Assembly: GCA_027319565.1 (NCBI GenBank)
Contig: DAHVNA010000029.1
Coordinates: 1 to 28,839 of the forward strand
From: Elusimicrobiota bacterium
GTDB lineage: Bacteria > Elusimicrobiota > Elusimicrobia > UBA1565 > UBA9628
Length of the DNA stretch: 28,839 nucleotides
Direction: 5' to 3'
Translations under genes and position numbers: made by a program
Shown here: positions 6,129 through 28,838 of the stretch, one piece after another
Numbering within the stretch: the first letter of the stretch is position 1
How the letters are laid out: each line of letters starts with the position of its first letter
Notes under the pieces: generated by a model
The model's database searches: none
What the model was told of the DNA's origin: nothing
The model's input: the letters and a program-made list of their open reading frames with translations, nothing else

Positions 6129-6133
6129 AATTA

Positions 6134-9093: not shown

Positions 9094-9122
9094 TTGATAG
9101 ACTAGCGCGAGGGGATTATTCT
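9094..9122 (+). promoter_or_regulatory. Putative sigma70 promoter TTGATA-N17-TATTCT
   Basis: -35 at 9094-9099, 17-nt spacer, -10 at 9117-9122 and ATG 6 nt later. Confidence 0.55.
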
Positions 9123-9128
9123 ATTTCA

Positions 9129-10091: not shown

Positions 10092-10096
10092 AATAA

Positions 10097-10690: not shown

Positions 10691-10697
10691 GGATGAG

Positions 10698-11119: not shown

Positions 11120-11497
11120 TCAAGCCCCCAAGCGGCGTTCCAAGGCCTTGACCCGGGCCAAAAGAACTTCGCGCTCAAATGGCTTGGTCACGTATTCATC
11201 TGCCCCGCGGTTATATCCTCGAATTTGCTCGACGACCAATGCCCTGATAGTCAGCATTAAAATAGGGAGTTCCGAATACGCTAAATCCTGGCGAATGCGC
11301 TCGGTCAATTGAAGGCCGTCAAGGCGGGGCATATTGAAATCAAAAATGCCCATGTCCGCGCCTTCTGCCTTGAGTTTTTCCCAGCCTTCTTGCCCGTCGG
11401 TTGCCTCAAGCACCTCATAGCCCTCTTCTTCGAGCATCATGCGAAGAATTTCCCGCACCGAAGCGTCGTCGTCCGCGATTAGAATTTTTTTAGCCAT
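11120..11497 (-). CDS. Single-domain response regulator (receiver)
   Basis: ADDD, DFNMPRLDG, MLT and GADEYVTKPF. The start overlaps the upstream regulator's stop. Confidence 0.92.
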   Translation of the reverse strand: MAKKILIADDDASVREILRMMLEEEGYEVLEATDGQEGWEKLKAEGADMGIFDFNMPRLDGLQLTERIRQDLAYSELPILMLTIRALVVEQIRGYNRGADEYVTKPFEREVLLARVKALERRLGA

Positions 11498-12191: not shown

Positions 12192-12232
12192 TATTAAAAT
12201 TAATCTAGCAAATATCAATTAAAAAAAGCGAC

Positions 12233-12696
12233 GTGACCGGAAAGTCACGGACGCAACGGAGGTAACGGCAAGATACAGAAAGGAACAGAAAGAAACGGAT
12301 GCAACGGAAAGACACGGAAAGCAAAAGAAATCAACAGAGAGCAACAGAAAGAAACGGAGGTAACGGAAAGTAAAAGAAAGAAGGGGACTGGATTCCGGCT
12401 TACGGCCGCTCTCTAACAGACTTGGAAGCGGGTCGCTCTTTAACGAATGCGGAAGCGACACTTCTTCGCCTATGCTCAGTCGCACTTCCTCGCCAATGCT
12501 CGGTTGCCGGAATGACGAAGCCCCCTCGTTGCCTTCCGCCACTTTCCGTTGCATTCCGTTACATCCGTGTCTTTCCGTTACTTTCTGTTGCATTCCGTTA
12601 CTTTCTTTTACTTGCCGTTACGTCCGTTGCTTTCCGTGTCTTTCCGTTTCTTTCTTTATACTTTCCGTTCCCTTCCTTCGCCATTTCTTCGTGATT
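12233..12696. repeat. Composite inverted repeat: ~15 GNAACGGAAA-type units, REP hairpin with nested 51-bp units, inverted TTTCCGTTNC-type array
   Basis: Left arm 12233-12381, core 12388-12516, right arm ~12526-12696 ending in ttccttcgccatttcttcgtgatt. Confidence 0.9.
12404..12505 (+). mobile_element. 51-bp site-specific insertion unit with a second, diverged 51-bp copy nested inside it (12431-12481)
   Basis: Removing 12431-12481 restores a 51-bp unit. Removing that unit restores ctggattccggcttac|gccggaatgac. Mobility is inferred from filled versus empty sites. Confidence 0.65.
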
Positions 12697-12719
12697 GCCG
12701 CGGAATTTTCATATACAAT
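12691..12719 (+). promoter_or_regulatory. Putative promoter GTGATT-N17-TACAAT
   Basis: The -35-like hexamer is the end of the repeat arm. The -10 is at 12714-12719 and the ATG 8 nt later. Confidence 0.45.
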
Positions 12720-12727
12720 TTCAATTA

Positions 12728-15700
12728 ATGGGAAATAAAAAAATTCCGTTTCTCTCCCTTCTTCTGATTTTGGCGGCTCTCGCGCCCTCAGCTCAGGCGC
12801 AGGTGCAATTGGCGATAGCGACGCCGACTTATCCCGCAAACGGATCCTATTTTAGCCTTCAAAATAACGTCCCTAATTTCAATTGGATGGGGCCCAGCAC
12901 GACGACCATCGCTCTTTCCACTTCGCCCGTTTGGAATCTCGACGTCAACACCGACCCCACATTTGTCTCGGGAGCCGTGATCAGCATTTCCACGCCAGCC
13001 GTTATTCTCAGCACAAATCTCGCGGGAACTCGCGGAACTTATATTTCAGGGACTCCGCTTTCCAACAACACGACTTATTATTGGCGCGTTTACGCGACAG
13101 ACGGATCGGGCGGCATGAGTCAGTCTTGGAGCACGTTTAGTTTCGTCACTAATTTCGCCAATTCTCCCAATCTCTCGGCCTCAAACTTTGGGAGCCTCAA
13201 TTCTTCAAATCAATTCACCCCAGAAAACACTTTTATTACTCTCGCCTCGGGTGTCACGTCCCAGATTTCCGTCGCGGATTCCATTAGCGGACTTGCTATT
13301 TCAACGTCCGCCCTTCCATTTTCCGGAGACGGCAATGACGCCGCGACGGGAACCAGCGGATATGGCGTTCTCTATTCTACAGACGCCGGATCAAGCTGGG
13401 AAGATTATTCCGCGCTCAACATCAGCGTCCCTTATGCTGGAGCCAATATTAACGTCCTAGCCGTATTCAATGGATTTCTCTATGCTGGCCTTAGCAATGG
13501 AACTATCCTCTATACTTCTAACGGAACGCTCTGGAATACGGTCTATTCCGGATCTGGAGGCGTGAGTCATTTTGTCGTTTTTAATAATCATCTTTTTGCG
13601 ACAACCAATGCTATCGTTTCCATTAATACCAGCAACGGGGTCAGCGTTGTTTTTAACGCTGGAGCCACGGGTCTCGGCGTCCTTAACGGAACGCTCTTTG
13701 CTGGGTTTTATCCTGGCAGCGCTATTTATGCCACGCAAGATGGAGTTAACTGGGTCTATACGGCAAACCTTGCAGTATGCTCGGACAACTCCGCAAGATT
13801 TTTTACATTCAACGGTGAAATTTACGCCAATATTACCGAGGGCCCAGGCATAAGTTGTAGCGGACTATTTAGAAGCCCAGATGGATTTAACTGGACAAAC
13901 GTTGAATATCAATCCACACCGGGATCTCTCAGCGGCGCAACAGTTTTTAATGGCGAGCTCTATGCGACAACGTATAATCCAGGAGCGCCTCTCCTTTATT
14001 CCAGTCAAGATGGTCTCAGTTGGACTGCGGACAATGGCTCTCTCTCAAATCCTTCCCTAGGCGGCACAGCTAACACTATCGGCGTGGCCAACGGAAAACT
14101 TTATGTGGGAATCAGCACGAATACCGCGAAAATTTATGAGACACCGGATGGAAATAATTGGTTTCCAACAATTGCAGGCGGCACCGGGCAAGGAGGGGCT
14201 GGGGCGCCGGTTAATTTCAACGGTACGCTTTATGCCGCCGCTGGACCAGATCTCATCCGCCTGACACCGGTCTCAACCACTCTACCTGGTGGAAACGGAA
14301 CGCCTTCGGGAACGCTCTCCGCCACAAATTTAAATCTTGTCACATCGACAAGCGCGACGACTTGCGGCGGAACTTATCCTTGCACGGCCACAAACCAGGT
14401 GATGTTTACGGCGTCTGACATGGCGGGGAATACCCTGCGCGCGGGACCCTATGCGGTTTTGGTCGACACGACGGTCGGACCCGCGATTTCGACCCAAACA
14501 TATCCCGCGAACGGGCAATATATCAACGTCAATCCCAATTTCGACTGGCAAGGGCCGAGCGTTGGGCTTATCTCATCTCTGCAGCAGCCCGTTCACTATA
14601 ATATGGAAGTTTCAAATTCTTCAAATTTTTCGAGCCTCCTTATTTCGATTAGCACACCGGCGATTATCGTCAGCACGGCAATCCCCACGGTCAATGGAGC
14701 CTATATCTCGACATACCCCGCCACGACATTCGCGAACAACACCTCTTACTATTGGAGAGTTCAAACCGTAGACGGCTTTGGCGCGGCAAGCGCGTGGTCA
14801 AGCGTCACAAGTTTTGTCACTGATTTTTCGAGCCCCACCGAATCGGGTTTTGAAAGTTTCAATCAACTTGGATCGCCCTTGACCGAAAGTCAGCTCAATA
14901 CACTCGCTTCGGGCGTGACTGCGCAGATTACGGTTCAAGATTCTATTTCGGGTCTCGCCGTTTCAAGCGGAGCCCTGGCTTTTCTAGGAGATGGGCATGA
15001 CGATCCGCAAAACACCAGCGGTTTTGGAACGATTTATTCGACAAATGCCGGCCAAAGCTGGATTAATTGGGCCGCTTCCACAAGCGCTCTGGTCGGCAGT
15101 TCCGGAGATAACATGGGCTCCCTCGCGGATTTTGCCGGAGAACTCTATACGGGAGATTACACTCATGGAGACGTCTATGTCAGTCCTGATGGGCTTAACT
15201 GGAGCGGAACCTCCGTCAGCAGTCCCATCTACGCCTTAGCGGCGTTTAACGGAGCGCTCTATGCGGGCAGCAATGGCAGCGTCTTTTCGGACTCAGGAGG
15301 AATCTGGAGCCTTGCGGCAAATATCGGAAATCAAATACGAACTTTCGCTGTTTTAGGCGGCACTTTATACGCCGGAGATGGGGGAAACGGGCATGTTTAT
15401 TCCACCGCTAACGGAACGAGTTGGAGCGACACCGCCACGGGAGCCAACTCCATCTACGCTTTAGCCGCTTTTAACGGCGCTATTTATGCGGGAGACGTGG
15501 TCACCGGAAAAATATATGAAAGCGCTAATAATACCACCTGGAACACTACCGGGATTACTCTCAATCAGGGCATTGGGGTTCTGAGCGTTTTTAACGGCCA
15601 TCTCTATGCAGGTGGAATAAAAGGAGACATTTATTCCAGCGTCGATGGAAAAACTTGGAATGTCGGAATTCCGGTGGGAAGCGACATTACCGCTATGAGT

Positions 15701-18700
15701 ATTTTTAACGGCCAACTCTATGCGGGAGACTCTAATGGGTATCTGCACTTCACTTCCGACGGCGTTAACTGGAGCACAGGGACATATTTGGGAGCGGGAG
15801 TCATCTCTCTTTCCTCTTTTAATGGGAATTTTTATGCTGGAGACACAAATGGCCAAGTCCATCAATTGACGCCCGTAACAGCGACGCTTTCAGGCTCTGA
15901 TGGAACGACATCAGCCGAGACACTTTCCACTTATGGTCTTGATCTGATTAGTTCAACGAACTCCGTCACCTGCGGAGGCATTTATCCCTGTGGAGCGACA
16001 GATCAGATTATATTTACCGCTTCCAACCTTGCGGGTAACGCTCTTAAGGCCGGACCTTACGCGGTTTTTGTCGACACCACCCTTCCGGCCCCGCCGACGC
16101 CAAGCTATCCCGCCGATGGCCAAAATATTGGGCTTAACCCCAATTTTGATTGGACCGGTCCCAGCACATCCATTGTCGCGGGGCTTCATCAACCCGCTTA
16201 TACGAATCTCGAAGTGTCTAATTCTCCAACTTTTTCGAGCCTTCTTATATCGATTAGCACGCCGGCGGTTGTTTCCAGCACTCAAGTCAGTACCGCGGAC
16301 GGGGCCTATATCTCGACTTACCCCGTTACAACTTTCCTGAGTGGTACGACTTATTACTGGAGAATTCAAAACGAAGACGGGTTTGGCAATGTCAGCACTT
16401 GGTCAAGCATATATAGTTTTGTGACCGATTTCTCATCTCCAACGGGATCTGGATTTGAAAGTTTTAACGCGCTGGGGAGCACTGTCACCGAATCTCAAAT
16501 CAATTTACTTTTATCGGGAGTCACGGCTCAAATTACCATTCAAGAAATCGACTCGGGACTCGCGGTGTCAAGTTCGGCTATTAGCTTCTCGGGAGATGGC
16601 CATAACGATCCGCAGGTTGCGGGTGATTCTTACGGCGCAATTTATTCTACCGATACCGGACAAAGCTGGATATCGTCTGTCTCTTCCTATCCTGTTCTGA
16701 CGGGAGAAACCGCCGTCAATAGTCTCGCCGAGTTCCAAGGAAATATCTATGCCGCGACGTCCAATGGCGGTAAAGTTTTCGTCAATGGAAGCCCGTGGAG
16801 CGCCTCGTTTACGGACGGAACGGGGAATATATTGGCCATGGCCGTTTTTAATAATCAGCTTTACGGCGGAGATTCAGCGGGGAAACTCTACTCTTATAAT
16901 GGAAGCGCCTGGAGCGGAGCTATCTCCGGCTACCCCGGAATTTCCGCCATCAACAGTATCATCGTTTTTAATAAAAGAATTTACTGCGCCGACAGCGGGA
17001 AAAATATCTATACCAGCCTGGATGGGGTTTCCTGGAGCCATGTATTTAGCGGCAGCGCAAGTCTAATCTCCATGGCCAGCTTCAATGGCCAAATCTATGT
17101 GGGAGATTCTGCCGGTCATCTCTATTCAAGCTCTAACGGAACTGATTGGTCGCAACAAAGTGGATATCCCGGGTCCGGCGTCTATTCGTTGGCGGTTTTT
17201 AGCGGCAAACTCTATGCCGGAGACACAAACGGGCTCTACGTAAGTTCCAATGGAGCGGCCTGGTCACAGCAAACTCAATATCCCGGAACGAGTGTCTACA
17301 CTTTGGCCGTTTTTTCCGGGGAGCTTTATGTGGGAGATGGAAACGGCAACCTTTACGCAAGCGCCAATGGCGCTATCTGGAGCCGCTCGTTATCCGTTCC
17401 CGGAGGGACTTTGTCCGCTCTTTCGGGCTTTGGCGCTCAGATCTACGCTGGCGATCAATTGGGTAATCTCTGGCAGGTAACACCCATCTCAGCAACTCTC
17501 TACGGGTCTGATGGAACGAATTCCGCTCAAGCATTATCGATCAAAAACATCAATCTCGCTCCCTCACAAACAACCCTGACCTGCGGTGGAACTTCTCCAT
17601 GTGCCGCGACCAATCAAGTACTTTTCTCTGCGTCTAATATGGCTGGAAATTCCACGCAGATCGGTCCCTACGCGATTTTAGTCGACACAATTCCCACCGA
17701 TGTGATTCTTACAACCGCCAATGTCGCTCCCAGCTCAATTCCTCAGGGCACCGACGCGGCTTTTATTCGCATGACGCTTCAGAGCGTGAGTGGAACGGCG
17801 CCTTGGACAGGTATTACCGTTCAGCGCGTTGGGGGGGGAACTGACTCGGACGTATCCAACGTTTCTATCTGGAGAGACTCGCTTAATGATGGAGTTTTTT
17901 CATCCACCGTTGACGCCCAAATTTCAAACCCAGTCTCATTTTCCGGTGGCGAGGCTCTCGTTGTTTTTACGTCCACTGAAAACATCCACACTTCGACGCA
18001 AGCCTATTTTGTCGTCTTGACGGCCAATTATCAAGCGACAGATGGAGACACAATAGGTTCTGAAATCGCCTCCACCGCTTCATTTGTGTTTTCTAGCGGC
18101 TACTCCGCTAGTAGCGGCCAGAAAAATATTTATCCTTTAATTTCGAGCACGGCGACAATAGTCGATGGCCCCAACAATTTAGACGTAACTCCGGTCAGCC
18201 AAGCGCCGTCCTACGACTCTCCCGGAACAACCGGAATTTCAATGCTGGCTCTGAAATTTCAAGTTCCCGCCACTACTCCCGGAACAAGCACTCTTTCAAA
18301 AATTGTTTTTCAGCTTCAGGGAACCGCGCCCTCTAATGACATTAGCTCGATTTCTCTCTATCGTGATAACGATAATAATGGGATATATGATCCGGGAGTG
18401 GACGGGCTCGTTTCATCGGGAAATGACTCATTTACTAACGGAGTTGCGACTGTCGCTTTCACCGCTCCCGCGGCCTCAGACACCGTCAATGAAACTCCCA
18501 TCTATTATTTTGCGGTGATTAATCTTTCCGTCAACGCCGCTTTGGGCGACACCATGCAAATCGCGGTAACCACAACAACAGACGTCCAACTCATTGACAC
18601 TCTTGACACAATAGTCTTTGTGAGCACCCCCGTCGCTTCTTCCACGATGACGGTTGAAAATCTCAATACACTCTCAATCGTGGGATCTAATCTCGCGCCT

Positions 18701-21028
18701 ACAAGTTTTCTTCAAGGCATTTCCAACTACACCGTTTTGAAAGCGAGTTTTAACGTCAATAACCAGAACACGGCATTCGCGGGAATTGCCGTCAATCGTC
18801 TTGGGCTTGGGCATGACACCGACGTTTCCTCTGTAAAATTCTGGCAGGACCCAAACCCGCCCGAAGCTTTTAACCCCGCTATCTTCAATTTTCTGGGATC
18901 AGCGCAATTCACAAGTGGCGTCGCTCAAATTAATTTCTCAACACAAACGCTTTATGCCGGAACCACCTACGTCTATTTTGTCACCTACGATATCAGCCCA
19001 ACGGCCGTTACCGGTGACACTTTGGGAGGGAGGATTCAAAGCAGTCTCTCCATTACTCTGACTAACCCTGGAACCAGCATCTCCGGAACTTTTCCTATTG
19101 ATTCCTCAACCGCGCCCATTACCGCCACTCAAGCAGGGCTTTTTGTATCGGCGCAAGATGAGGCACCGTCAAGTCTTATGCAAGGCGCGACCAACCAGCA
19201 AATGCTTAATTTGACGCTCAACACCACGCAATACGCCTTGGCCCTGAGCGCTCTGACGATTCAGTCTTCAGGAACCGCAACGAGTTTGGACATTTCGCGC
19301 GCGGAGATTTATCAAGATGCGGTTGGAAATGGAATCCTCAGCGTTTCCCAAGACCCTTTGCTTGCCGCCGCGAACTATCCGTTTGTCGGAGGCGCGGCGG
19401 TTTTAAGCCTCACCAACCCCTTAAACATCAGCACGACCCCAATTCGTTTAATAATGGCCGTTGATATTAGCTCCACTGCCGATTATTATCATACCTTCGG
19501 CGTGGCCGTGACGACGACCAGCGATCTGAGCGTAAATGCGCCCAACTTTATTGTCCCATCAAGCACGACTTTTCCCGCAAACTCAAGCGTCGTTCCTATC
19601 ACAAAAGAGCCTGACATCATGACGCCATCGGGAATTTCTCTAATAAACCCGGCTGGAGTCGTGCAAAATCAAGAAGCTCTCGCTGCGGAGATATCGGTCT
19701 CAACTCTGCGGAGTTCAGTAACATGGACTAATATCGCGATATCTAGAGATGGGAGTCTCCCGGATTCCGGAATTGACGCCGTGAAAATTTACGCCGATTC
19801 CGATGGCAACGGCGTTTGGGACTCAAGCGATGTCTTAATTGGAAGTGGAACATTTATCGCGGGCCTTGCCGATATCACGTTTTTTACTCCTCAAATCACG
19901 AACGTCACGCCCTTAAATTATTTCGTGACGCTCACTATCGATATCAATGCGACTCCAGGAGACACTATTGGGATATCTTTGGCTGGAGCCTCAAACTTTA
20001 CAGTCGCGCCGCCAGACACTGTGTCTGGCTCAAGTCTTCCTTTTGTATCGGCTTTGGCGCCAATTCTAAACGCGAAAACTCCAACGCAGCCACTGGTGAC
20101 GCTTCCGAACGGAAGCTATAGCAGTTCTTTTGACTCAGTCACTTTTATCTGGTATTCGACAGTAACGATTGGCACAATTTCAAGCGCGGCCTATGCCGTT
20201 GGAACCACTCCCGGTGGGAGCAACGTCTTGCCTTTCACTCAAATTCCGCTCACAGCCTCAAGCTACACCGCCACGGGACTTCTCTTTTCAAACGGAGCGA
20301 CATACTACGTCTCAGTTGAAGCGACATCTAATTATGGTTATACAAGCCCCGTAGGAACGAGTCCCGGGTTTCTTGTAGACCTTATTACCCCCGGCCCACC
20401 GACAAATTTAACGGCTCAAACAGGCGCGAGTTCGATTTACCTTGATTGGTATCCGGGAACCGCCGGGCCGTCAGGACTTGCGGGATACCTGCTTGAGTAT
20501 TCCGACGTCGAACATCCGACCTGGTATAACGCGAAAACCGGGGCGGTCACCGCCTTGGCTGTCGGCCCCCACGGGACCTTGTCGGCAAATTTCATTCCTT
20601 CCGCGCCTTTCTTATTCAACAACCCGCCCCAGGGAACCCTTCTTTTCCGCGTCAGCTCGGTCAATGGCGCGGGAGTGCAAAGTTCGCCCTCCAACACCAT
20701 TCGCGTTCTATACGGAACGCAATCGACGGCGGGAATATCGAACGTCTCTTCCTATCCCAATCCCTTTAACTCCAATTCCGGAGTGGCCACTATTGTCTAT
20801 ACCTTGGATACGCCGGGAAGCGTTTCGATTCAAATATACAGCGTCTTTGGAAATATGGTTAAAACCCTCAGTTATTCCGGAGGAGGCGCGGGGGGGCAAG
20901 CCGGAGTCAACACCGTGACCTGGGACGGAACCGATTCCGGAGGCCGCAAGGTGTCCAAGGGCATTTATATCGCGATTCTTAAAGCCAATGGAGCGAGCGT
21001 CCAATACAAAATTGGAGTTAACCACTGA
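12728..21028 (+). CDS. Very large secreted/surface protein: 3x (Fn3/Ig + beta-propeller) modules, 5 Ig-like repeats, 2 Fn3-like domains, C-terminal T9SS type-A sorting / FlgD-Ig-like domain
   Basis: Signal peptide MGNKKIPFLSLLLILAALAPSAQA, repeated LAVFNGxLYAG and SxDGxxW (Asp-box) blades, repeated IYxDxxxNG motifs, and C-terminal YPNPF...IQIYS..G.MVKTL...WDGTD..G..VSKGIYI...KIGV. Confidence 0.88.
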   Translation: MGNKKIPFLSLLLILAALAPSAQAQVQLAIATPTYPANGSYFSLQNNVPNFNWMGPSTTTIALSTSPVWNLDVNTDPTFVSGAVISISTPAVILSTNLAGTRGTYISGTPLSNNTTYYWRVYATDGSGGMSQSWSTFSFVTNFANSPNLSASNFGSLNSSNQFTPENTFITLASGVTSQISVADSISGLAISTSALPFSGDGNDAATGTSGYGVLYSTDAGSSWEDYSALNISVPYAGANINVLAVFNGFLYAGLSNGTILYTSNGTLWNTVYSGSGGVSHFVVFNNHLFATTNAIVSINTSNGVSVVFNAGATGLGVLNGTLFAGFYPGSAIYATQDGVNWVYTANLAVCSDNSARFFTFNGEIYANITEGPGISCSGLFRSPDGFNWTNVEYQSTPGSLSGATVFNGELYATTYNPGAPLLYSSQDGLSWTADNGSLSNPSLGGTANTIGVANGKLYVGISTNTAKIYETPDGNNWFPTIAGGTGQGGAGAPVNFNGTLYAAAGPDLIRLTPVSTTLPGGNGTPSGTLSATNLNLVTSTSATTCGGTYPCTATNQVMFTASDMAGNTLRAGPYAVLVDTTVGPAISTQTYPANGQYINVNPNFDWQGPSVGLISSLQQPVHYNMEVSNSSNFSSLLISISTPAIIVSTAIPTVNGAYISTYPATTFANNTSYYWRVQTVDGFGAASAWSSVTSFVTDFSSPTESGFESFNQLGSPLTESQLNTLASGVTAQITVQDSISGLAVSSGALAFLGDGHDDPQNTSGFGTIYSTNAGQSWINWAASTSALVGSSGDNMGSLADFAGELYTGDYTHGDVYVSPDGLNWSGTSVSSPIYALAAFNGALYAGSNGSVFSDSGGIWSLAANIGNQIRTFAVLGGTLYAGDGGNGHVYSTANGTSWSDTATGANSIYALAAFNGAIYAGDVVTGKIYESANNTTWNTTGITLNQGIGVLSVFNGHLYAGGIKGDIYSSVDGKTWNVGIPVGSDITAMSIFNGQLYAGDSNGYLHFTSDGVNWSTGTYLGAGVISLSSFNGNFYAGDTNGQVHQLTPVTATLSGSDGTTSAETLSTYGLDLISSTNSVTCGGIYPCGATDQIIFTASNLAGNALKAGPYAVFVDTTLPAPPTPSYPADGQNIGLNPNFDWTGPSTSIVAGLHQPAYTNLEVSNSPTFSSLLISISTPAVVSSTQVSTADGAYISTYPVTTFLSGTTYYWRIQNEDGFGNVSTWSSIYSFVTDFSSPTGSGFESFNALGSTVTESQINLLLSGVTAQITIQEIDSGLAVSSSAISFSGDGHNDPQVAGDSYGAIYSTDTGQSWISSVSSYPVLTGETAVNSLAEFQGNIYAATSNGGKVFVNGSPWSASFTDGTGNILAMAVFNNQLYGGDSAGKLYSYNGSAWSGAISGYPGISAINSIIVFNKRIYCADSGKNIYTSLDGVSWSHVFSGSASLISMASFNGQIYVGDSAGHLYSSSNGTDWSQQSGYPGSGVYSLAVFSGKLYAGDTNGLYVSSNGAAWSQQTQYPGTSVYTLAVFSGELYVGDGNGNLYASANGAIWSRSLSVPGGTLSALSGFGAQIYAGDQLGNLWQVTPISATLYGSDGTNSAQALSIKNINLAPSQTTLTCGGTSPCAATNQVLFSASNMAGNSTQIGPYAILVDTIPTDVILTTANVAPSSIPQGTDAAFIRMTLQSVSGTAPWTGITVQRVGGGTDSDVSNVSIWRDSLNDGVFSSTVDAQISNPVSFSGGEALVVFTSTENIHTSTQAYFVVLTANYQATDGDTIGSEIASTASFVFSSGYSASSGQKNIYPLISSTATIVDGPNNLDVTPVSQAPSYDSPGTTGISMLALKFQVPATTPGTSTLSKIVFQLQGTAPSNDISSISLYRDNDNNGIYDPGVDGLVSSGNDSFTNGVATVAFTAPAASDTVNETPIYYFAVINLSVNAALGDTMQIAVTTTTDVQLIDTLDTIVFVSTPVASSTMTVENLNTLSIVGSNLAPTSFLQGISNYTVLKASFNVNNQNTAFAGIAVNRLGLGHDTDVSSVKFWQDPNPPEAFNPAIFNFLGSAQFTSGVAQINFSTQTLYAGTTYVYFVTYDISPTAVTGDTLGGRIQSSLSITLTNPGTSISGTFPIDSSTAPITATQAGLFVSAQDEAPSSLMQGATNQQMLNLTLNTTQYALALSALTIQSSGTATSLDISRAEIYQDAVGNGILSVSQDPLLAAANYPFVGGAAVLSLTNPLNISTTPIRLIMAVDISSTADYYHTFGVAVTTTSDLSVNAPNFIVPSSTTFPANSSVVPITKEPDIMTPSGISLINPAGVVQNQEALAAEISVSTLRSSVTWTNIAISRDGSLPDSGIDAVKIYADSDGNGVWDSSDVLIGSGTFIAGLADITFFTPQITNVTPLNYFVTLTIDINATPGDTIGISLAGASNFTVAPPDTVSGSSLPFVSALAPILNAKTPTQPLVTLPNGSYSSSFDSVTFIWYSTVTIGTISSAAYAVGTTPGGSNVLPFTQIPLTASSYTATGLLFSNGATYYVSVEATSNYGYTSPVGTSPGFLVDLITPGPPTNLTAQTGASSIYLDWYPGTAGPSGLAGYLLEYSDVEHPTWYNAKTGAVTALAVGPHGTLSANFIPSAPFLFNNPPQGTLLFRVSSVNGAGVQSSPSNTIRVLYGTQSTAGISNVSSYPNPFNSNSGVATIVYTLDTPGSVSIQIYSVFGNMVKTLSYSGGGAGGQAGVNTVTWDGTDSGGRKVSKGIYIAILKANGASVQYKIGVNH

Positions 21029-21431
21029 ACGGCAGTAACGGAAAGCAACGGATGTAACGGCAGGTAACAGAAAGACACGGAAAGAAACGGACGTAACGGA
21101 GGGCAACGGAATTCCCCTCCGCGTCATTCCGGCGACCGAGCATTGGCGAGGAAGTGCCGCATCCAAGTCTGTTGGAAAGCGGCCGAAAGCCGGAATCCAG
21201 CAACGGAAAGTTAATGAGAACGACCAAGAGAGGCGATGAAGGAATTGAGGGCAAAAGCCCGCTCGTCATTCTGACGAAAGCCGGAATCCAGATACTGGAC
21301 CCCGGCTTACGGCCTGCCGGGGTGACAAGGAGCCTTCGCCGCTTTCCGTTTCTTTCCGTTACTTTCCGTTACGTCCGTTTCTTTCTGTTTCTTGCCGTTT
21401 CTTTCTGTTCCTTTCCGTTTCTTTCCCTTCC
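21027..21431. repeat. Composite repeat: purine array, REP with 51-bp unit (21134-21184), ~50-bp linker module, REP doublet, pyrimidine array
   Basis: Arms at 21027-21111 and 21342-21431; hairpins at 21123-21200, 21265-21291 and 21295-21326. Confidence 0.88.
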
Positions 21432-22929
21432 CGCATCCGCCGCCAGCTCCTATGCGGGTTCCCCCAATGAAATATTTCAATTTGGAGCCGACGCTCGCGC
21501 GATGGGAATGGGAAACGCCTATACCGCGATTGCCGGCGGGGCTTCTTCCTTATATTACAACCCTGCGGGGCTGGGACTTCTCAATGGTCCCGATATCAGC
21601 GCCATGCAAGCAAGTTTAATCGGCGGAGCGGGATATGAAAATTTATCCTACGCCCAGAATTTTTCAAAAATGCCGGGAGCTTGGGGGGTCGAAGCCCTGA
21701 ACATGGGTATCAGCGGGGCGCAACAGCGGGATTCTCAAAACAATCTCACCGGAAGTTTCGGCTTTCAAGAAACCGGATACGGCGCTGGATTTGGACTGAG
21801 AAACGTCATCATCCCTAATTTGTCCTTGGGAGGATCCTTTCAGGGCCTCAGCCGCAGCCTTGGAGGAAGTTCTTCCGACATGCTTTACGGAGGAAATATC
21901 GGAGCTCAATACGGCCCTTTTTTCGACAACATGGTCACGGCCGGCGTGGTTGTTCAAAACGGATTTAGCGGGGCGCAAAACACCTTTGACCGGCTTCCGA
22001 CCGTTGTCCGCACTGGGCTGGCCATCACTCCCATGGATAATCTTCTCATCTCCGCCGATTATGGAGATGACGGGGATTATGGAATCGGAGCTGAATATCG
22101 AATATGGATGTTCGCCATACGAGCCGGATACATCCCGGAAGGCCTTACTTTCGGAGCCGGAATCTATTACAAATCTCTTGAGGCCGATGTCGCCATGGTC
22201 AACGATCCTGTCTTTGGACTGGGAGAGAGATTTTCTCTCAATTACCGCTTTGCAGGAAAGAAAAAAGAAAAACCTCTGGACGCTTACACCGAAAGCTATC
22301 TTGAGGCGGCGAAAAAAGAGCTCAATCTCCGCAACTATCTTAACGCGCAGCTCGCGCTTGAAGAAGCGCTGGGCATCAATCCCGCCCAGGTCCCGCAAGA
22401 GTGGAAGGAAAAGTTAAAGCTTTTAGAGTCTTTTAACAATGCCTTGGATCTCAAGGAACGCCCCGATGAGATTAAAACGCTTCGTTCTCAAGACCAAGCG
22501 GCCATTTTGGCACAAAAATCTATTTTCTCCTACTTAGACGGACACGACGGCGAGGCGATGATTTGGGCTTCGGTGGCCGCGGGATCCGGAAACAAAACAA
22601 TGCCCTATATTGACTTTGTCAAGACGATGGCTTATCTTACTAGGATGAAAGTCTCGGAGGGAGACTTGTTGCCGCCAGCGGAATTTGTCTCCAAGAAAAT
22701 GGAAACCGCGCTTCAGGCTATTTATCAAAAGCGCTTTGCCGACGCCGTCAAGGATTGCCGGCAGGCCATAACTATCAACCCCGATGAGTCCTCGGCTTGG
22801 ACCCGGCTTGGAAGCGCTTATTTCGCCTGGGGACATAAAAGAGAAGCCAAGAAAGCATATCAAAAAGCTCTTTCCTTGGACCCCAAGGACGTCGATCTCA
22901 AGAAATTTATGGAGATGTACATAAGATGA
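21322..22929 (+). CDS. PorV/PorQ (FadL-like) outer-membrane beta-barrel with C-terminal TPR region
   Basis: ARAMGMGNAYTA....SSLYYNPAGLG N-terminal signature, amphipathic beta-strands ending FSLNYRF, and TPR motifs (AWTRLGSAY...YQKALSLDP). The start is uncertain: GTG 21322 or ATG 21214. Confidence 0.82.
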   Translation: MTRSLRRFPFLSVTFRYVRFFLFLAVSFCSFPFLSLPASAASSYAGSPNEIFQFGADARAMGMGNAYTAIAGGASSLYYNPAGLGLLNGPDISAMQASLIGGAGYENLSYAQNFSKMPGAWGVEALNMGISGAQQRDSQNNLTGSFGFQETGYGAGFGLRNVIIPNLSLGGSFQGLSRSLGGSSSDMLYGGNIGAQYGPFFDNMVTAGVVVQNGFSGAQNTFDRLPTVVRTGLAITPMDNLLISADYGDDGDYGIGAEYRIWMFAIRAGYIPEGLTFGAGIYYKSLEADVAMVNDPVFGLGERFSLNYRFAGKKKEKPLDAYTESYLEAAKKELNLRNYLNAQLALEEALGINPAQVPQEWKEKLKLLESFNNALDLKERPDEIKTLRSQDQAAILAQKSIFSYLDGHDGEAMIWASVAAGSGNKTMPYIDFVKTMAYLTRMKVSEGDLLPPAEFVSKKMETALQAIYQKRFADAVKDCRQAITINPDESSAWTRLGSAYFAWGHKREAKKAYQKALSLDPKDVDLKKFMEMYIR

Positions 22930-22998
22930 GAAAGAAGGAACGAGTAGGAACGGAAAGTAAAAGCAAGTAACGGAAAGGAATGGAAAGCAACCGAAAAT
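22930..22998 (+). repeat. Solo purine-rich GNAACGGAAA-type array
   Basis: ggaacggaaa-gtaaaagcaa-gtaacggaaa-ggaatggaaa-gcaaccgaaa lies between two genes. Confidence 0.75.
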
Positions 22999-23009
22999 AG
23001 AGGAGCGAC

Positions 23010-25526
23010 ATGGATCTGATTGCCTTGGTTTTTATTCCAAGCCTCTTTCTTGTCCTAGGGGCTTTGATGTTTGTCGTCAGCCGGGTCATGGAATTTACGC
23101 AATCCAACCGCTATTTCGCAAAGCAAAGGGGAAATAACCTTATGTTCACTAAGTTCATGACTCAAATCGCCATCGCCAAAAGCCAATTGGGAAAAAGGGC
23201 GCAAGAATTGGAGGCTCTTTCCCTACGCCTTCAGATGAATAACGAGGAACTCGCCCGACTCAATAATCTCAAGATGAAGTTTCTGTCGATGGCGGTCCAT
23301 GACATCCGCAATCCTTTGACCGCGATCACGGGATACAGCGATATTCTCTCGCGAAACAAAAATTTGGGGCCCAGGGAACAAACTCTCTCTAAAATGATTT
23401 TGACCGCGACCAGACAAATCAATCACCTGATGGGAGACCTGACCGATCTGGCAGTCATCGAGGCGGGAAAGTTCCACATGGAGATGGCGCCCTTTGATCT
23501 AGCGGGGCTTGTTCAAGAAGTGGGGGCAACGCTGGCCCCCGGAGCATCAAATAAAGGAGTTATTCTCTCCGTTCGCGAACCTCCGCCCGGAATTACCATC
23601 ACCGCCGACCGCTACCGTATTTGGCGCGTATTGACCAATCTCTTGGGTAACGCCGTTAAATTTACTCCCGCGGGCGGACGGGTCGAACTCAGAGCCGAGG
23701 TCGCGGGGGGAATGGCGATGATTTCCGTTCAAGACAACGGGCCTGGAATTCACCCGACCGAGCGCCGAAAAATTTTTGAAAAATTCTACCAGTCCAAACA
23801 CATCAAGGATGAAAAAGCCCGAAAGGGCGGCTGGGGCTTGGGACTGGCTATCGCCCAGGAAATCGTTCAGGCCCACGGAGGGGAAATCGGCGTCGATAGC
23901 CGCGGTCTCGGCCACGGGTCCACTTTCTGGGTCCGCATTCCTCTTAAAGCCAGGCGCCCAGTGCGCTCAAATCCCATGCGGCTTTCTTTAGCCTTTCTTG
24001 GATTCCTTAGCCTTTCTTGGATTCCAAAGCCCATTCAAGCGCAAACAGTGGTTCCTTTTCTTGAAAAATCTAAATTCGAAAAATCTCTCGAAACAAAGGT
24101 CGACGGGGTTCTTCTCAACATTCTGGGCCCTAATCGCGCCAAGGTCATTATCAACGCGACCCTTGATTTCACGAAAACGGAAAGTTTCAAAACCGAAGGG
24201 GCCAGCGTAACGAGTACCAAGACATCGGGCTTGCCGTACCTTTGGCAAGAGCCGAGTAAAACGGAGCGACCTCAGGAACTTTTGCCCGGGGTGCCGCTTG
24301 ATTCCGGCGGTCCGGCCTCACCCGCGCCGCCGCCGTCCATCAAAGGCTATAAAAAGGAAGATTCTTTTCCTTCTAATTTTGTCAAACGCTTAGACGTGAC
24401 GTTAATTTTAGATAACTCCGTCAAAGGCAATCGCAGTACCGAAATCGGTAAAATTACCGCGGACCTTCTCAATCTTAATCCCAAAAGAGGGGATTCCTTG
24501 ACCGTCGTCCACACCGGATTTTCTCCGATCTGGAAAACCGTCTGGTATTCTCCGGAAACTGCGGGCATGCTTCTCAAATATATTTTGACTGGGTTTCTCT
24601 TTTTCATGGCGCTTGTCGTTATCGCCGTCGGATTTATCAAGATCGCCAATGCCATGAGAATGATGGCTAACGCCCAGGCTCAGCAAATTTCGATGGACAT
24701 GAAAGGACTGGAAGGCGAAGGAGGCGAAGGCCCGGGAGGGGTTTTAGGACGCAATACCCTGATGATTGGAGAACAAAAATCCGGAGAGAACGCGGAAGAA
24801 AACAAAAACGCGCCAATCATGTTTGACGTTAGAATTGAGCAAGTGGAAACCTTGGCTCAAATGCTTTTGCCGGAACCCCCTGAAAATATCGCCATTGTCG
24901 CCTCTCGTTTGACTCCCGAAGTATCCAAGAAACTCATCGAGGCCCTTCCGCCAGAGCTTGCCAGTTCCGTCATTAGTCAATTAGCTCGTCCGCGTTTTAT
25001 CGACCCGGAAATAATCGTCAATCTCAAGGAAGAGTTGGAGCGGCGTCTGTCCGGAGCCGTGGGAGGAGTTCATTATCTGGCGGAACTCATGTCGGCCGCC
25101 AGCCAAAAAAGGCGCCATGAAATGCTTGAAGCCGTGCGCGTGCAAAACCCCACTCTCGCCGAAGAATTAAGAAAGAGAGTATTCTTCATCGAAGATCTTT
25201 CAAAACTCACGCAGCAAGAGTGGTCGTATCTTTTGTCCCTGGTTACTTACCAAGAGTGGAGCGCGGCTCTCCATGAGGGTCCTAAAAGCGTGGTAGAAGC
25301 CATCAAGCAAAACCTATCAGAGAAGGCCTGGGGAGTCTTAAGCGAAATGATTGAAGCGTCTTCTCCAACGATAGAACAAGCGGAAGCGGCCCAAGATAAA
25401 ATCGGAAAAAGCGTTTCTGAACTGATTTCAGAACAGCGCATTAAAACCATCGCCCCGCAATTAGGGCTTCAAATTCATGAATCTCCCATAGAGGAAGAGA
25501 AAGATACGGAAAGTAACAGAAAGTAA
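23010..25526 (+). CDS. Fusion protein: TM - histidine kinase (HisKA+HATPase_c) - TM/signal-like segment - FliF C-terminal ring-building domain - TM - FliG middle/C-terminal domains
   Basis: H-box VHDIRNPLT, N-box NLLGNAVKFT, DNGPGI and GLGLAI. FliF-like LLNILGPNRAKVIINATLDF and VKRLDVTLILD...NPKRGDSLTVV. FliG-like EPPENIAIV (EHPQ), GG hinge, LAEELRKRVFFIEDL (MFxFEDL), NLSEKA and EAAQ. AGGAG RBS at 23001. Confidence 0.85.
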   Translation: MDLIALVFIPSLFLVLGALMFVVSRVMEFTQSNRYFAKQRGNNLMFTKFMTQIAIAKSQLGKRAQELEALSLRLQMNNEELARLNNLKMKFLSMAVHDIRNPLTAITGYSDILSRNKNLGPREQTLSKMILTATRQINHLMGDLTDLAVIEAGKFHMEMAPFDLAGLVQEVGATLAPGASNKGVILSVREPPPGITITADRYRIWRVLTNLLGNAVKFTPAGGRVELRAEVAGGMAMISVQDNGPGIHPTERRKIFEKFYQSKHIKDEKARKGGWGLGLAIAQEIVQAHGGEIGVDSRGLGHGSTFWVRIPLKARRPVRSNPMRLSLAFLGFLSLSWIPKPIQAQTVVPFLEKSKFEKSLETKVDGVLLNILGPNRAKVIINATLDFTKTESFKTEGASVTSTKTSGLPYLWQEPSKTERPQELLPGVPLDSGGPASPAPPPSIKGYKKEDSFPSNFVKRLDVTLILDNSVKGNRSTEIGKITADLLNLNPKRGDSLTVVHTGFSPIWKTVWYSPETAGMLLKYILTGFLFFMALVVIAVGFIKIANAMRMMANAQAQQISMDMKGLEGEGGEGPGGVLGRNTLMIGEQKSGENAEENKNAPIMFDVRIEQVETLAQMLLPEPPENIAIVASRLTPEVSKKLIEALPPELASSVISQLARPRFIDPEIIVNLKEELERRLSGAVGGVHYLAELMSAASQKRRHEMLEAVRVQNPTLAEELRKRVFFIEDLSKLTQQEWSYLLSLVTYQEWSAALHEGPKSVVEAIKQNLSEKAWGVLSEMIEASSPTIEQAEAAQDKIGKSVSELISEQRIKTIAPQLGLQIHESPIEEEKDTESNRK

Positions 25527-25942: not shown

Positions 25943-25965
25943 AAAGCCCTTCTTTGTTCTATTCT
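25937..25965 (+). promoter_or_regulatory. Putative promoter GTGATT-N17-TATTCT
   Basis: Same geometry as 12691-12719, with ATG 25972 6 nt after the -10. Confidence 0.45.
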
Positions 25966-25971
25966 ATAGTT

Positions 25972-27342
25972 ATGGGTGAAAGTCCAAAAGGCTCCATCTT
26001 CGCGTCGCTCAGGGCTTTAGAGGAAGTCCCGGAAGAAACGCCTACGGCGTCCCCGGTTCAGCAAAGCGCTCCTCCCACACCGGCCCAACCCGCTCAGCCG
26101 CCGACGCCGCAACCAGCTCCTGTTACGCCTGCATCCAATGATGCTGTCAAAAGCGTGGAATCAAGAATTGAGAAAATGGAGCAAAAAATCCAGGAAATGG
26201 GAGCAGTCCCTCATTCGCCCATTCCGGACTCTCATCTTGACCGCATTGAAGCGCTTGAGAAAAAACTTCAACAAATGCAAGAACGCGCCATTCAAGCGGA
26301 AGTCGCGCTCAGAGAGCGGGAAAAATCTCAAGAAGCGGCAAGAAGAGAAACCGAAGCCCTGCTTCAAAATCTCGCAGCTCAAAGACGGCTAGAGGAATCA
26401 GATCGACAGATGAAGGAAAATCTGGCCTACTCCCGAAGACGCATCGAGGAATTGGAAGCGAAAAAGCCGGAATTTCCCACGGAAATTCCGCAAGAAGAAA
26501 TCACTCGAAAAATAGAAGAAGGGTTGCGCCCATTTTCAGAGACGCTGTCGCGTTTGGAACTTCAAGCGAAAGCCCTGCAAGAAGATGTCTATCGAAAAAC
26601 AGAAGAAGGGTTGCGCCCATTTTCAGAGGCCCTGTCGCGTTTGGAACTTCAAGCGAAAGCCCTACAAGAAGATGTCTATCGGAAAACAGAAGAAGGGTTA
26701 CGCCCATTTTCAGGGACGCTGTCACGTTTGGAACTTCAAGCGAAAGTTCTGCAAGAAGATGTCGCTCGAAAAATAGAAGAAGGGTTGCGCCCGCTTTCAG
26801 AGGCCCTGCCTCGTTTGGAACTTCAAAATGAAAATATTGGGAAAATGGGGCAAAAACTTAAAAATCTGGAAAACCGCGTTGATTCTTTTTTTGCCTATCA
26901 AGCGGAATTTACTCAAGACATCATCGAGAATCAAAAAGCCCTAGCCGCAACTAAATTCCAAGCCCAAAAGACGGAGGAGATTCTTAAAAACACTCTTGAG
27001 CAATACGCACGGTTTGAAAGCTGGTTTCGCAATCGTCCTATAGTCGCCGCACAAGCGGATTCTCTTCATCAGACTCTCTCTCATTTTAAAAAAATCAATG
27101 AACAAACCGCTGCGGCTACAAAAGAAGAACTTGATAAAATCAGTTCCGCTCTTAGCCATTTGATCGATCAAGAGAAAATGTTTGAAAGCTGGCTGGACTC
27201 ATCTCCTCTTCCCCAAAAATATTCAAATCCGGCTGTCTCCAACACTCCAGGGAAAAGCGAGGATATCGAAGAACTTGAGGAAGATTTCCAGAAAATATTA
27301 TCCGTCCTTGACTCGGGATTAAACGTCCCGCCCAACAAGTAA
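25972..27342 (+). CDS. Hypothetical cytoplasmic coiled-coil protein with Pro-rich N-terminus and 29-aa tandem repeats
   Basis: Long E/K/Q/L-rich ORF with no TM segment. ATG 25972 preferred over TTG 25954. Confidence 0.8.
   Translation: MGESPKGSIFASLRALEEVPEETPTASPVQQSAPPTPAQPAQPPTPQPAPVTPASNDAVKSVESRIEKMEQKIQEMGAVPHSPIPDSHLDRIEALEKKLQQMQERAIQAEVALREREKSQEAARRETEALLQNLAAQRRLEESDRQMKENLAYSRRRIEELEAKKPEFPTEIPQEEITRKIEEGLRPFSETLSRLELQAKALQEDVYRKTEEGLRPFSEALSRLELQAKALQEDVYRKTEEGLRPFSGTLSRLELQAKVLQEDVARKIEEGLRPLSEALPRLELQNENIGKMGQKLKNLENRVDSFFAYQAEFTQDIIENQKALAATKFQAQKTEEILKNTLEQYARFESWFRNRPIVAAQADSLHQTLSHFKKINEQTAAATKEELDKISSALSHLIDQEKMFESWLDSSPLPQKYSNPAVSNTPGKSEDIEELEEDFQKILSVLDSGLNVPPNK
26506..26826 (+). 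repeat. Intragenic 87-bp tandem repeat, ~3.7 copies
   Basis: Units start at 26506, 26593, 26680 and 26767 (RKxEEGLRPFSExLSRLELQAKALQEDVY). Confidence 0.95.
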
Positions 27343-27404: not shown

Positions 27405-28142
27405 ATGGAACTAACATCAATTATCGGTCTCGGAGCAATTCTCATTTTAACCGCGATAGGCCTTGCAACCGGAGGGCTTCCCGCGGTCTTTATCAACTGG
27501 CATGGAATTGGGATTGTCATAGGGGGCACTTTCTGCGCCTTGATGATTAACACCCCGATGGATATTTTGCTTAGAACCGGAGCCTCCTTGACCGATTTAT
27601 TTTCGGCCGATCCCTATATCGATCGCCTAGGAATTATGGACGCCGTCATGTCCTTGGCCCAAGATATTCAATCCCGCGGGATGAGCGCCTTTCAAAACGT
27701 CAACAAAGCGGTCGCTTCCGGTTATTTAGCCTACGCCGCTCAAATTGCCGTTGAATATAATAATCCGGAAATTCTAAGACAGGTTCTGGAAAATGAAATC
27801 ATTCAGAACTCCGATTTGCAAAACGAGGCGGTCAACGTCTTTAGAACTGCCGGCATTTTAGCGCCCATGTTCGGCCTTTTGGGAACCTTGATTGGAATTG
27901 TCGAGGTCCTGCGCCAAATTGCCAACCCCGCTCAGGTGGGATCCGCCATGGCGGTAGCCATCACGACCGCTTTTTACGGTATCGCGATGGCCAACGTCTT
28001 TTGCGTTCCCATCGCCGGGAAACTGCGCATCAGGTATTGGAGGGAAACACAGGCCAAATCCATGATTCTCGAAGGAGTTTATGAAATTCTCCAGCGAACG
28101 CCCGCAGTCATTATTTCGCGAAAACTAAAATCCTATCTATAA
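27405..28142 (+). CDS. motA: Stator A subunit (MotA/PomA family)
   Basis: N-terminal TM pair (FIN..GIGIVIGGT), APMFGLLGTLIGIV and MAVAITTAFYG...AN...PIAGKL. Precedes motB. Confidence 0.9.
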   Translation: MELTSIIGLGAILILTAIGLATGGLPAVFINWHGIGIVIGGTFCALMINTPMDILLRTGASLTDLFSADPYIDRLGIMDAVMSLAQDIQSRGMSAFQNVNKAVASGYLAYAAQIAVEYNNPEILRQVLENEIIQNSDLQNEAVNVFRTAGILAPMFGLLGTLIGIVEVLRQIANPAQVGSAMAVAITTAFYGIAMANVFCVPIAGKLRIRYWRETQAKSMILEGVYEILQRTPAVIISRKLKSYL

Positions 28143-28145: not shown

Positions 28146-28838
28146 ATGAGACGCTCGCGCCACGAGGAACTGGAAAACCAGCTCTCAAAATCCGCCCAGT
28201 GGGCCATCACCTACGGCGATTTTATGAGCTATCTCATGATTTTCTTTTTGATCATGTTCTCTTTTACCCTATCTAAATCCGGGGGGAAAACGACCGAAAA
28301 TATCAAATACCAACAATCCCTGATCAAAATTCAAAAAGTCTTCGGCGGCAAGGGCTCTTCTCTGGATTATGATCGGCTCATCAAAAGAGAAAAAGAAGAG
28401 TCCATGGTGACCCAGCTTAAACAAGCCCTCGACAAAAAGGATTTATCCAAGTACGCGAAAATAGAAACCTGGGATAAAAAAATTCGCCTTATTTTGGCCA
28501 GTGCCGTTCTCTTTGATTCCGGAAGAGCTACGCTGGCGCCGCGTTCTGAAAAGATATTGGCGGCGGTCGCCCAACAACTCAAAACCCTGGACAATCCCAT
28601 CCAAATCGAGGGCCACACCGACAACGTGCCGGTTCGCGGCGGAAAATACAAATCAAACTGGGAACTCTCTATGGCCCGCGCTTATTCCGTTTTAGTTTTC
28701 TTTCAAAAGCAGGGAATCAACCCGCAAAGATTATCCGCCATCGGCTACGGAAAATATCACCCCATCGCGGACAATAGCACTCCCGCAGGGCGGGCAAAAA
28801 ATCGTAGAATCGAAATAGATTTATTGAGGACTCAATAA
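28146..28838 (+). CDS. motB: Stator B subunit (MotB/PomB family) with OmpA-like peptidoglycan-binding domain
   Basis: TM motif WAITYGDFMSYLMIFF with the conserved Asp (D25), plus IEGHTDN, NWELSMARA and NRRIEI. Confidence 0.93.
   Translation: MRRSRHEELENQLSKSAQWAITYGDFMSYLMIFFLIMFSFTLSKSGGKTTENIKYQQSLIKIQKVFGGKGSSLDYDRLIKREKEESMVTQLKQALDKKDLSKYAKIETWDKKIRLILASAVLFDSGRATLAPRSEKILAAVAQQLKTLDNPIQIEGHTDNVPVRGGKYKSNWELSMARAYSVLVFFQKQGINPQRLSAIGYGKYHPIADNSTPAGRAKNRRIEIDLLRTQ

Follow-up and report, generated by a model that had tools for sequence, protein, structure and literature searches.

The window analysed here, by which we mean the whole stretch of 28,839 nucleotides (positions 1-28,839 of contig DAHVNA010000029.1), stems from a metagenome assembly of an Elusimicrobiota bacterium (GCA_027319565.1). 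On its forward strand, positions 23010..25526 hold an uninterrupted open reading frame (ORF) of 838 aa, in which a histidine kinase is followed by a signal-like segment, a FliF-RBM3-like domain, a transmembrane (TM) helix and the middle and C-terminal domains of the rotor protein FliG. Five Pfam families match this protein, each over its curated cut-off: HisKA (residues 88-153, 23271..23468, 49.5 bits), HATPase_c (residues 200-313, 23607..23948, 96.4 bits), YscJ_FliF_C in the periplasmic RBM3-like domain (residues 345-516, 24042..24557, 25.0 bits), FliG_M in the FliG middle domain (residues 613-683, 24846..25058, 45.9 bits) and FliG_C in the torque-helix domain (residues 708-811, 25131..25442, 53.1 bits). 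Hydropathy marks strong membrane helices at the N-terminus of the kinase (residues 1-30, 23010..23099, KD19 2.72) and at residues 517-553 (24558..24668, KD19 2.77), where the chain returns to the cytoplasm and a long helix is present in the structural model. A weaker hydrophobic stretch (KD19 1.11) follows Met323, and the basic linker with its short hydrophobic segment ending in IQA, with QT following (residues 323-344, 23976..24041), resembles a signal peptide. An earlier note on this DNA had drawn the same domain map, with the kinase and the FliG part inside the cell and the ring domain in the periplasm, and profile matches, predicted folds and hydropathy bear out the map, its coordinates and this self-consistent topology.

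A word-indexed search of a 5.8-billion-protein set with the rotor part returned 34 proteins, among them 17 clusters of fused proteins (819-876 aa, 39-100% identical to the query in the aligned region) with the same five Pfam families. The frame across the junction is open in all 17 aligned fused proteins (38-90% identity), and residue counts for fused homologs refer to this alignment. The phospho-acceptor His97 of the H-box (23298-23300) is invariant in 17 of 17, as are N210, N214, D242, G244, the F-box (F256-S262) and G274/G276/G278, which represent the N, G1, F and G2 boxes. Residues 1-87 contain one membrane helix and a coiled coil in front of HisKA and gave no match to a sensor or input family in Pfam or NCBIfam, in agreement with the earlier description of a kinase without recognisable sensor domain. 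On the kinase part, NCBIfam returned generic histidine-kinase cores alone, far under the equivalog cut-offs. A complex prediction for the kinase half (1-322) with the rotor half (323-838) gave a score of 0.00 and a mark of 0.32, which speaks neither for nor against binding. A search for loci with patterns from the kinase boxes led to 80 generic histidine-kinase loci in many phyla (L004-L083), none of which was used.

For the rotor half, AlphaFold2 models of residues 323-560 and 591-838 were built from 51-row alignments and reached pLDDT values of 84.5 and 91.1, respectively. Foldseek comparison of the periplasmic model gave 18 PDB matches at E<=0.001, all of them the RBM3/collar region of FliF in Salmonella or Vibrio MS-rings (E 3e-8 to 4e-6); PrgK, SpoIIIAG and EscJ come next, and a loop of low confidence is inserted at the collar position. 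FliF has two permanent flanking membrane helices, and in this protein the C-terminal one is strong, while the N-terminal segment resembles a cleavable signal peptide. All 13 PDB matches of the second model at E<=0.001 are FliG. By sequence search the FliG part matches the middle and C-terminal domains of Thermotoga maritima FliG (1lkv) at E=1.8e-22, its C-domain superposes on T. maritima FliG_C (1qc7) with an rmsd of 1.6 A, and the Gly-Gly hinge (G685, G686) is invariant in the 17 fused homologs. The model of residues 591-838 (m04728260cf5f) lies nearer to clockwise Salmonella FliG (TM-score 0.59-0.62, rmsd 4.1-4.7 A) than to the counter-clockwise form (TM-score ~0.37, rmsd ~14 A). The similarity to FliF and FliG proposed in the earlier note is thus upheld by profile and fold searches, as is the lack of the modules that normally join the two proteins: FliF RBM1/2 (YscJ_FliF, PF01514) has no match in the protein or in the genome, and FliG_N reaches 21.4 bits, under its cut-off of 25, in a match that overlaps FliG_M. 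Residues 554-610 form a low-complexity linker.

The fusion is not confined to this assembly. We searched 401 sampled Elusimicrobiota genomes with the rotor part and found a relative at E<=1e-10 in 170 of them; the rotor family comprises 537 representatives at this threshold. A fused open frame of at least 808 aa is present in 16 of the 401 genomes, so that homologs are not all split genes, an objection that the earlier note had considered. By family, the kinase-type cassette occurs in 10 of 10 genomes of family f2 (eight fused, two re-split), in one of two of f3 and in seven of 48 of f1, fused in all eight of these. The stop or frameshift near the junction that the earlier note had considered is likewise not seen in reads: contigs of three sequencing runs span the junction, from 23765 or 23813 to 24911, and agree with the window in every letter, free of indels; a run from another study also covers it and differs by substitutions only. 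The assembly may itself have been built from the first three runs, so that independent support comes from the conservation across genomes.

Split forms of the gene point to the origin of the fusion. In the sister family f5, an orthologous kinase is encoded by a separate gene of 313-340 aa (282-324 bits against the kinase of the window) in the same operon at 15 of 15 loci, in the order barrel, histidine kinase, MotA, rotor, (coiled-coil protein), MotB at each of them. In a quick IQ-TREE tree of the rotor part (35 rows, the paralog on contig C27 as outgroup, SH-aLRT support only), the 16 fused proteins fall together with the two re-split ones in a single clade (SH-aLRT 100), with the f5 forms in basal position; this indicates one fusion event at the base of families f1-f3. 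Nested in the fused clade is genus g18 (L129/G382, L130/G182), in which the reading frame changes within the linker, so that the gene is split again: a 327-aa kinase ends in the linker, and an overlapping rotor ORF of ~590 aa has its own Met and signal peptide. Tree and gene orders are best read as a kinase that began as a gene of its own within the operon and later fused once to the rotor, with one later reversal. The presence of the same kinase in the same operon at all 15 f5 loci, together with the single fusion, strongly supports a functional coupling of kinase and rotor. One f5 operon (L143, genome G308) carries tandem rotor genes at 5714-7417 and 9050-10906, on either side of MotA, which are mutual closest relatives in the tree. 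Another relative, P0028 (741 aa), has a coiled-coil region of ~215 aa instead of the kinase before the same signal-like segment and rotor, and by this example cytoplasmic additions at the N-terminus, before the signal-like segment, arose more than once.

The bacterium has no flagellum. In its genome (2.03 Mb, 111 contigs, 91.65% complete) there are no matches to FHIPEP/FlhA (PF00771), YscJ_FliF, Flagellin_N (PF00669) or FliMN_C (PF01052), and these profile searches each match in four flagellated control genomes. Seven genes of the MotA/ExbB family are present; two of them are MotA-sized and each stands beside a FliG-containing gene, and the other five are of the ExbB/TolQ type. The second MotA-sized gene belongs to a further cassette on contig C27 (L003, 4839-15734), which encodes a PorV-like/TPR protein, a 683-aa rotor, an 894-aa protein of no known family, MotA and MotB. 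Its rotor is a kinase-less FliF-RBM3::FliG protein with a C-terminal TPR tail, there is no kinase gene in or beside the cassette, and its PorV-like paralog reaches 88.7 bits with NF033709, under the cut-off of 90. The C27 cassette is followed by a caspase-domain protein and by a protein with weak matches to FlgT_N (23.9 bits, under cut-off) and DUF4384. On contig C20, a 1936-aa frame at ~17752-22230 (L153, L154) gave sub-threshold SprA matches of 55 and 44 bits (cut-off 200) and lies ~14 kb from an ExbB/TolQ-type gene at 34294-34551. A genome search for GldM found no match, but gave none in the control genomes either and is hence uninformative.

For the surroundings of the fused gene we compared the window and ~20 kb around 17 loci of its order (15 fused, two re-split) and 15 loci of the nearest kinase-less relatives. 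In the 16 fused loci the gene order is conserved: a giant protein (2200-3800+ aa), a PorV-like barrel with tetratricopeptide repeats (TPR), the kinase::rotor gene, a poorly conserved slot, MotA and MotB, with gaps only at contig ends. In the window all of these genes lie on the forward strand. The giant surface protein (12695..21028, 2777 aa) matches the sorting domain of type A of the type IX secretion system (T9SS; TIGR04183, 28.1 bits, cut-off 23) on its last 199 residues, and a giant protein is encoded upstream of the barrel in 15 of the 16 fused-gene loci, the 16th being a short contig. The PorV/PorQ-like outer-membrane barrel (21154..22929) matches NF033709 and carries TPR families in its C-terminal part; a barrel/TPR gene is located directly upstream of the kinase/rotor gene in 33 of 33 loci. 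The slot between the kinase::rotor gene and MotA is occupied by a Pro-rich coiled-coil repeat protein of 462 aa and no known family (25954..27342), conserved in position and weakly in sequence, for which a search of the protein atlas gave only generic coiled-coil look-alikes (best feature score 0.88, TM-score 0.40). The MotA-type stator subunit (27405..28142) matches PF01618 with 79 bits and MotA/PomA in the PDB with E~1e-27. The MotB-type subunit (28146..28838) has the plug (MotB_plug, 38.6 bits), the channel Asp and an OmpA-like peptidoglycan-binding domain (80.7 bits).

Composite palindromic arrays of 10-bp units fill intergenic gaps of the cluster (21018-21441, 22928-23015 and 25492-25937). 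The first array falls within the long annotated N-terminus of the barrel ORF, whose true start is probably downstream of 21154, inside repeat DNA. The kinase::rotor ORF runs into the repeat arm at 25492-25580, which supplies its final ~11 codons. Positions 22934-23008 are replaced by 32 other letters in contigs of three runs, which indicates strain variation.

Upstream of the giant gene, on the reverse strand, lie three response regulators. RR1 (10698..11060) is a CheY-like stand-alone receiver (Response_reg, 102.1 bits) and is confined to the genus of the window, with orthologs in L114 and L115 only among the loci examined. RR2 (11120..11497) is a stand-alone canonical receiver (Response_reg, 100.5 bits) that compares best with the OmpR family (CseB 110 bits, PhoB 109 bits, versus 80 bits for CheY). 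RR3 (11490..12218) is an OmpR-family winged-helix regulator with a degenerate receiver: Trans_reg_C alone was detected, the acidic pair and the conserved Lys are missing, and Ala stands at the acceptor position in this genome. The earlier note had named three regulators at 10.7-12.2 kb as targets for phosphotransfer; all three are present, but only two of them have canonical receivers, RR3 being degenerate. RR2 orthologs (127-225 bits) are found near the cluster at five f1/f3 loci, in seven of eight f2 stretches and in one f5 operon, where the gene lies between barrel and kinase. The RR3-RR2 pair stands beside the cluster in f1/f3 (L114, L115, L117, L119, L126); in seven of the eight f2 stretches it immediately precedes the giant gene and shares its strand. 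In the window and in L155-L160 and L162, the RR3-type gene always comes just before the RR2-type gene, overlapping it (by 8 nt in the window) or a few bases apart. It looks as if one response regulator had been divided in two, with the pseudo-receiver and DNA-binding part in one protein and the phospho-accepting part in the other. As candidate partners of the kinase, RR2, RR1 and RR3 were all identified by synteny only, and among them RR2 is most likely the best candidate.

Taken together, we consider it probable, on balance, that the fused gene is a genuine, selected Elusimicrobiota gene that encodes, together with a membrane-anchored, sensor-less kinase, the rotor subunit of a rotor-stator machine other than the flagellum. 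In this explanation the rotor subunit, with its RBM3-type domain in the periplasm, a single helix and the FliG middle and C-terminal domains in the cytoplasm, would form a ring, and the ion-driven, peptidoglycan-anchored MotA/MotB complex would act on the FliG domains. The periplasmic face of the ring may in turn work on the PorV-like barrel/TPR protein and on the giant T9SS-tagged protein that the barrel would hold. The kinase would be the dedicated signalling arm of the machine. Since it has no sensor domain, it may read the assembly or working state of rotor and stator via its membrane helix and coiled coil, and signalling would then run from machine to kinase. From the kinase, phosphate would most likely pass to the stand-alone receiver RR2, which, acting with the co-transcribed RR3, may set the expression of the cluster; for this step from kinase to transcription we rely on synteny. 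The findings point to a machine of the cell envelope that has not been described so far and whose signalling arm is built in.

Several points weigh against this explanation. The YscJ_FliF_C match (PF08345, 25.0 bits) is barely over its cut-off of 23.8, and by plain sequence the periplasmic part matches FliF of the PDB with a non-significant E=0.57, so that the RBM3 assignment draws mainly on predicted structure; the weak match to Salmonella FliF is colinear with FliF 241-278 and 409-449, the two halves of RBM3. NF033709 reaches 66.2 bits on the barrel, under its cut-off of 90, and the NCBIfam equivalog cut-offs for MotA and MotB were not reached (MotA, NF006583, 141.7 bits). The kinase-type cassette is absent from 41 of the 48 f1 genomes, including two of five of the window's own genus. 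A search of sequencing runs for the stretch listed no RNA run that holds it, and we know of no experiment on any member of the kinase::rotor family. Further points concern the interface of rotor and stator, where we take the Arg and Asp of the torque helix and the charged positions of the MotA loop to make the FliG-MotA contact. In an alignment with T. maritima FliG, only six of 17 fused proteins have a basic residue where the torque helix carries Arg, and the first Asp position is acidic in four and Gln in the remaining 13. At the Glu position of the MotA loop, aligned to solved MotA structures, none of 32 cassette MotAs has an acidic residue; Gln or Asn is found in the window's genus and Arg or Lys elsewhere, and the loop Arg position is Gln in the MotA of the window. 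Because these canonical charge pairs are not kept, rotation itself is something we infer. The channel Asp of the YGD/YAD motif of MotB is kept in 32 of 32. By these residues the stator looks able to conduct ions, with a rotor-stator interface that is re-wired or different.

The junction between kinase and rotor speaks against a permanent tether and leads to a rival explanation. A candidate signal peptidase I site lies after Ala344, with Ala at position -1 in all 17 fused proteins, Gln at +1 in 15 of 17, and at -3 mostly Ala (11 proteins; Leu in two, Ile, Thr, Gly and Cys in one each). Within the 27 residues before the hydrophobic core there is a basic stretch of 3-7 Lys/Arg. With KD19 1.11 here and a homolog median of 1.74, the segment falls well short of the hydrophobicity of the two true TM helices (2.74 and 2.73), and the model shows a helix over no more than 11 of its residues. 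Where kinase and rotor are split, this site is the end of a normal signal peptide at the N-terminus, with Ala or Gly at -1 and the same conserved mature start. All these features of the junction are those of a cleavable signal peptide; export may therefore sever the covalent link, and from the sequences we rate the chances that the kinase stays attached to the rotor as about even. In the rival explanation, which we hold to be a little short of an even chance, the gene encodes a polyprotein: one chain would be translated, its signal-like segment would insert, and signal peptidase I would then cleave behind Ala344. This would leave a kinase anchored by two membrane segments and a separate rotor subunit that crosses the membrane once, as in f5. 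The fusion would then secure 1:1 synthesis and co-insertion and would not be a mechanical tether. A short core fits this explanation, since hydrophobic cores are shorter in cleaved signal peptides than in signal anchors, in so far as the cited work covers them (PMC2120157). The re-split in g18, which kept both parts, is expected if fused and split genes give the same mature proteins, and cleavage to the same two products would explain why both fusing and re-splitting are tolerated. On the other hand, the site was called by hand rules, the uncharged run of 14-23 residues (median 17) overlaps with short membrane anchors, several homologs have Arg/Lys at -2 to -4, and the conservation of Ala344 could reflect the first residue of a folded domain. 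The cytochrome b-c1 precursor FbcH of Bradyrhizobium is reportedly a bacterial precedent, which our literature search did not confirm. An internal translation start at Met323 was rejected as a general feature, Met being present in two of the 17 fused homologs, both near-identical relatives of the window protein. A 19-bp tandem duplication with 95% identical copies (23984-24021) lies within the signal-peptide-like segment; as 19 is not a multiple of three, the two copies are read in different frames.

If the chain stays fused, each rotor subunit would carry a kinase, and the protein might act as a mechanosensor embedded in the motor, in which rotation, stator engagement or load alters kinase activity, as the earlier note had suggested. 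The self-consistent topology, the missing sensor domain, the conservation of the fusion across an order and the position of the kinase gene next to MotA in the split form agree with this idea, and the DegS-DegU system of Bacillus subtilis, in the account cited, responds to an arrest of flagellar rotation (PMC3963450). The signal-peptidase-type junction speaks against it, and the re-split in g18 and the long-lived split form of f5 indicate that a covalent linkage is not required. As stated in the earlier note, the idea is also weakened by the degenerate receiver of one of the three regulators and by the charge pairs missing between FliG and MotA. Moreover, HisKA kinases work as dimers, which the geometry of the ring would have to permit, and we regard this mechanosensor as rather improbable. 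Signals could also run the other way, with the kinase as a rotor-bound CheA and RR2 (or RR1 in this genus) binding to the FliG ring or stator as brake, clutch or reversing switch; as the genome has no FliM/FliN, the direct target of such a receiver could only be FliG or MotA. Both RR1 and RR2 are canonical receivers that stand alone, and an RR2 ortholog is part of one f5 operon, but RR2 is translationally coupled to the DNA-binding RR3 and travels with it as a pair, for which a transcriptional output fits better, its receiver is nearer to OmpR-family receivers than to CheY, and RR1 occurs in one genus only, all of which makes this kind of control unlikely. The loss of the charge pairs on FliG and MotA would also be compatible with a machine that does not rotate, in which a FliG-like ring or oligomer and MotAB pass the proton motive force to the barrel as a conformational push, similar to TolQR/ExbBD, and the kinase reports the state of the envelope. 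A rod or bearing is missing, and five further ExbB/TolQ-type genes are present in the genome. Yet length, plug and peptidoglycan-binding domain mark the stator as one of the MotA/MotB type, RBM3 is a fold that builds rings and the FliG hinge is conserved, and we judge a non-rotary energiser to be quite unlikely. An artefact or decaying remnant, that is, two genes joined by an assembly or frameshift error or relics of a lost flagellum, is barely conceivable. Met323 and the signal-like segment do resemble a gene start, the window is a metagenome assembly and repeat DNA lies at both ends of the gene; but 16 genomes and 17 protein clusters share the open frame, contigs bridge the junction free of indels, the catalytic and structural residues are invariant and the whole cluster is syntenic across three families, and we reject an assembly artefact for these reasons.

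In a literature search we came across no account of such a cassette or of a kinase fused to FliG; the kinase::rotor architecture is real and conserved and has apparently not been described before. New are also the split-operon ancestor, the single fusion with one reversal, the RR3-RR2 pair, the signal-peptidase-type junction and the loss of charge pairs on both rotor and stator. With the rotor-stator core of the flagellum (FliF RBM3/S-ring, FliG, MotA5B2/PomA5B2) the system shares the RBM3 fold, the membrane helix, the FliG middle and C-terminal domains with the Gly-Gly hinge, and the MotA/MotB pair with plug, channel Asp and peptidoglycan-binding domain. It differs from that core by the lack of RBM1/2, FliG_N and the charge pairs, by the kinase in front of the rotor and by the PorV-like barrel and T9SS-tagged giant as neighbours, and from the flagellum as a whole by a genome without FliM/N, export gate, rod or filament. 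FliF and FliG in one chain are known from a natural fusion in Chlamydiaceae, which keeps RBM2 (not RBM3), an unassigned region and FliG-M only (PMC4768692), and from engineered fusions of both full-length proteins in Salmonella and Vibrio that still build rings and motors (PMC11481574; PDB 8z4d/8z4g); unlike the gene described here, these fusions have, as far as the cited accounts go, neither a kinase nor a MotAB operon of their own. Closer at hand, the C27 cassette agrees in its rotor architecture, in a PorV-like/TPR partner of the same kind and in its MotA/MotB pair, and differs in having no kinase and in the TPR tail of its rotor.

The nearest functional analogue is DegS-DegU (PMC3963450), since in both cases a two-component output would be tied to the state of a MotAB motor, a tie that is genetic and physical here, with a putative function. 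DegS, in contrast, is a soluble kinase that, according to the part of the literature cited, is neither fused to the motor nor encoded with it. At the level of the whole system, the nearest analogue is the type IX/gliding apparatus, described in the cited account as comprising the GldLM motor, PorV and cargo with C-terminal domains such as SprB (PMC8986121). There, too, an ion-driven motor of the 5:2 type is encoded together with an outer-membrane barrel, which is PorV-like in the present case, and giant type-A-sorted cargo, but the motor here is MotAB with a FliG ring and not GldLM.

In its boldest form, our explanation describes a free-standing rotary motor in bacteria without flagella, which drives or tensions a giant adhesin in a PorV-like barrel while the kinase writes the state of the motor into a two-component pathway. 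This is possible, though doubtful at present. If true, the motor would be derived from, or ancestral to, the flagellar motor, the rotor would contain a molecular tachometer or load sensor for its assembly, rotation or load, and there would be a second route, powered by MotAB/FliG alongside GldLM, for moving type-IX-style cargo. The signal-peptidase-type junction, if confirmed, would be a rare bacterial membrane polyprotein, and the fused and split forms represent a natural experiment. Because the classical charge pairs are lost on FliG as well as on MotA, the system lends itself to the question of what rotor-stator coupling truly requires. The kinase gives a handle that kinase-less cassettes lack, namely an assayable signalling output to RR2/RR3, and provides a defined pair of proteins with which to test how a cell senses what state its rotary motor is in. 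In these bacteria, FliG and MotAB, well known as flagellar parts, appear to be under selection without a flagellum, as a minimal rotor (a single ring-building domain with FliG-MC) that has its own stator, which bears on the origin or the re-use of the flagellar motor.

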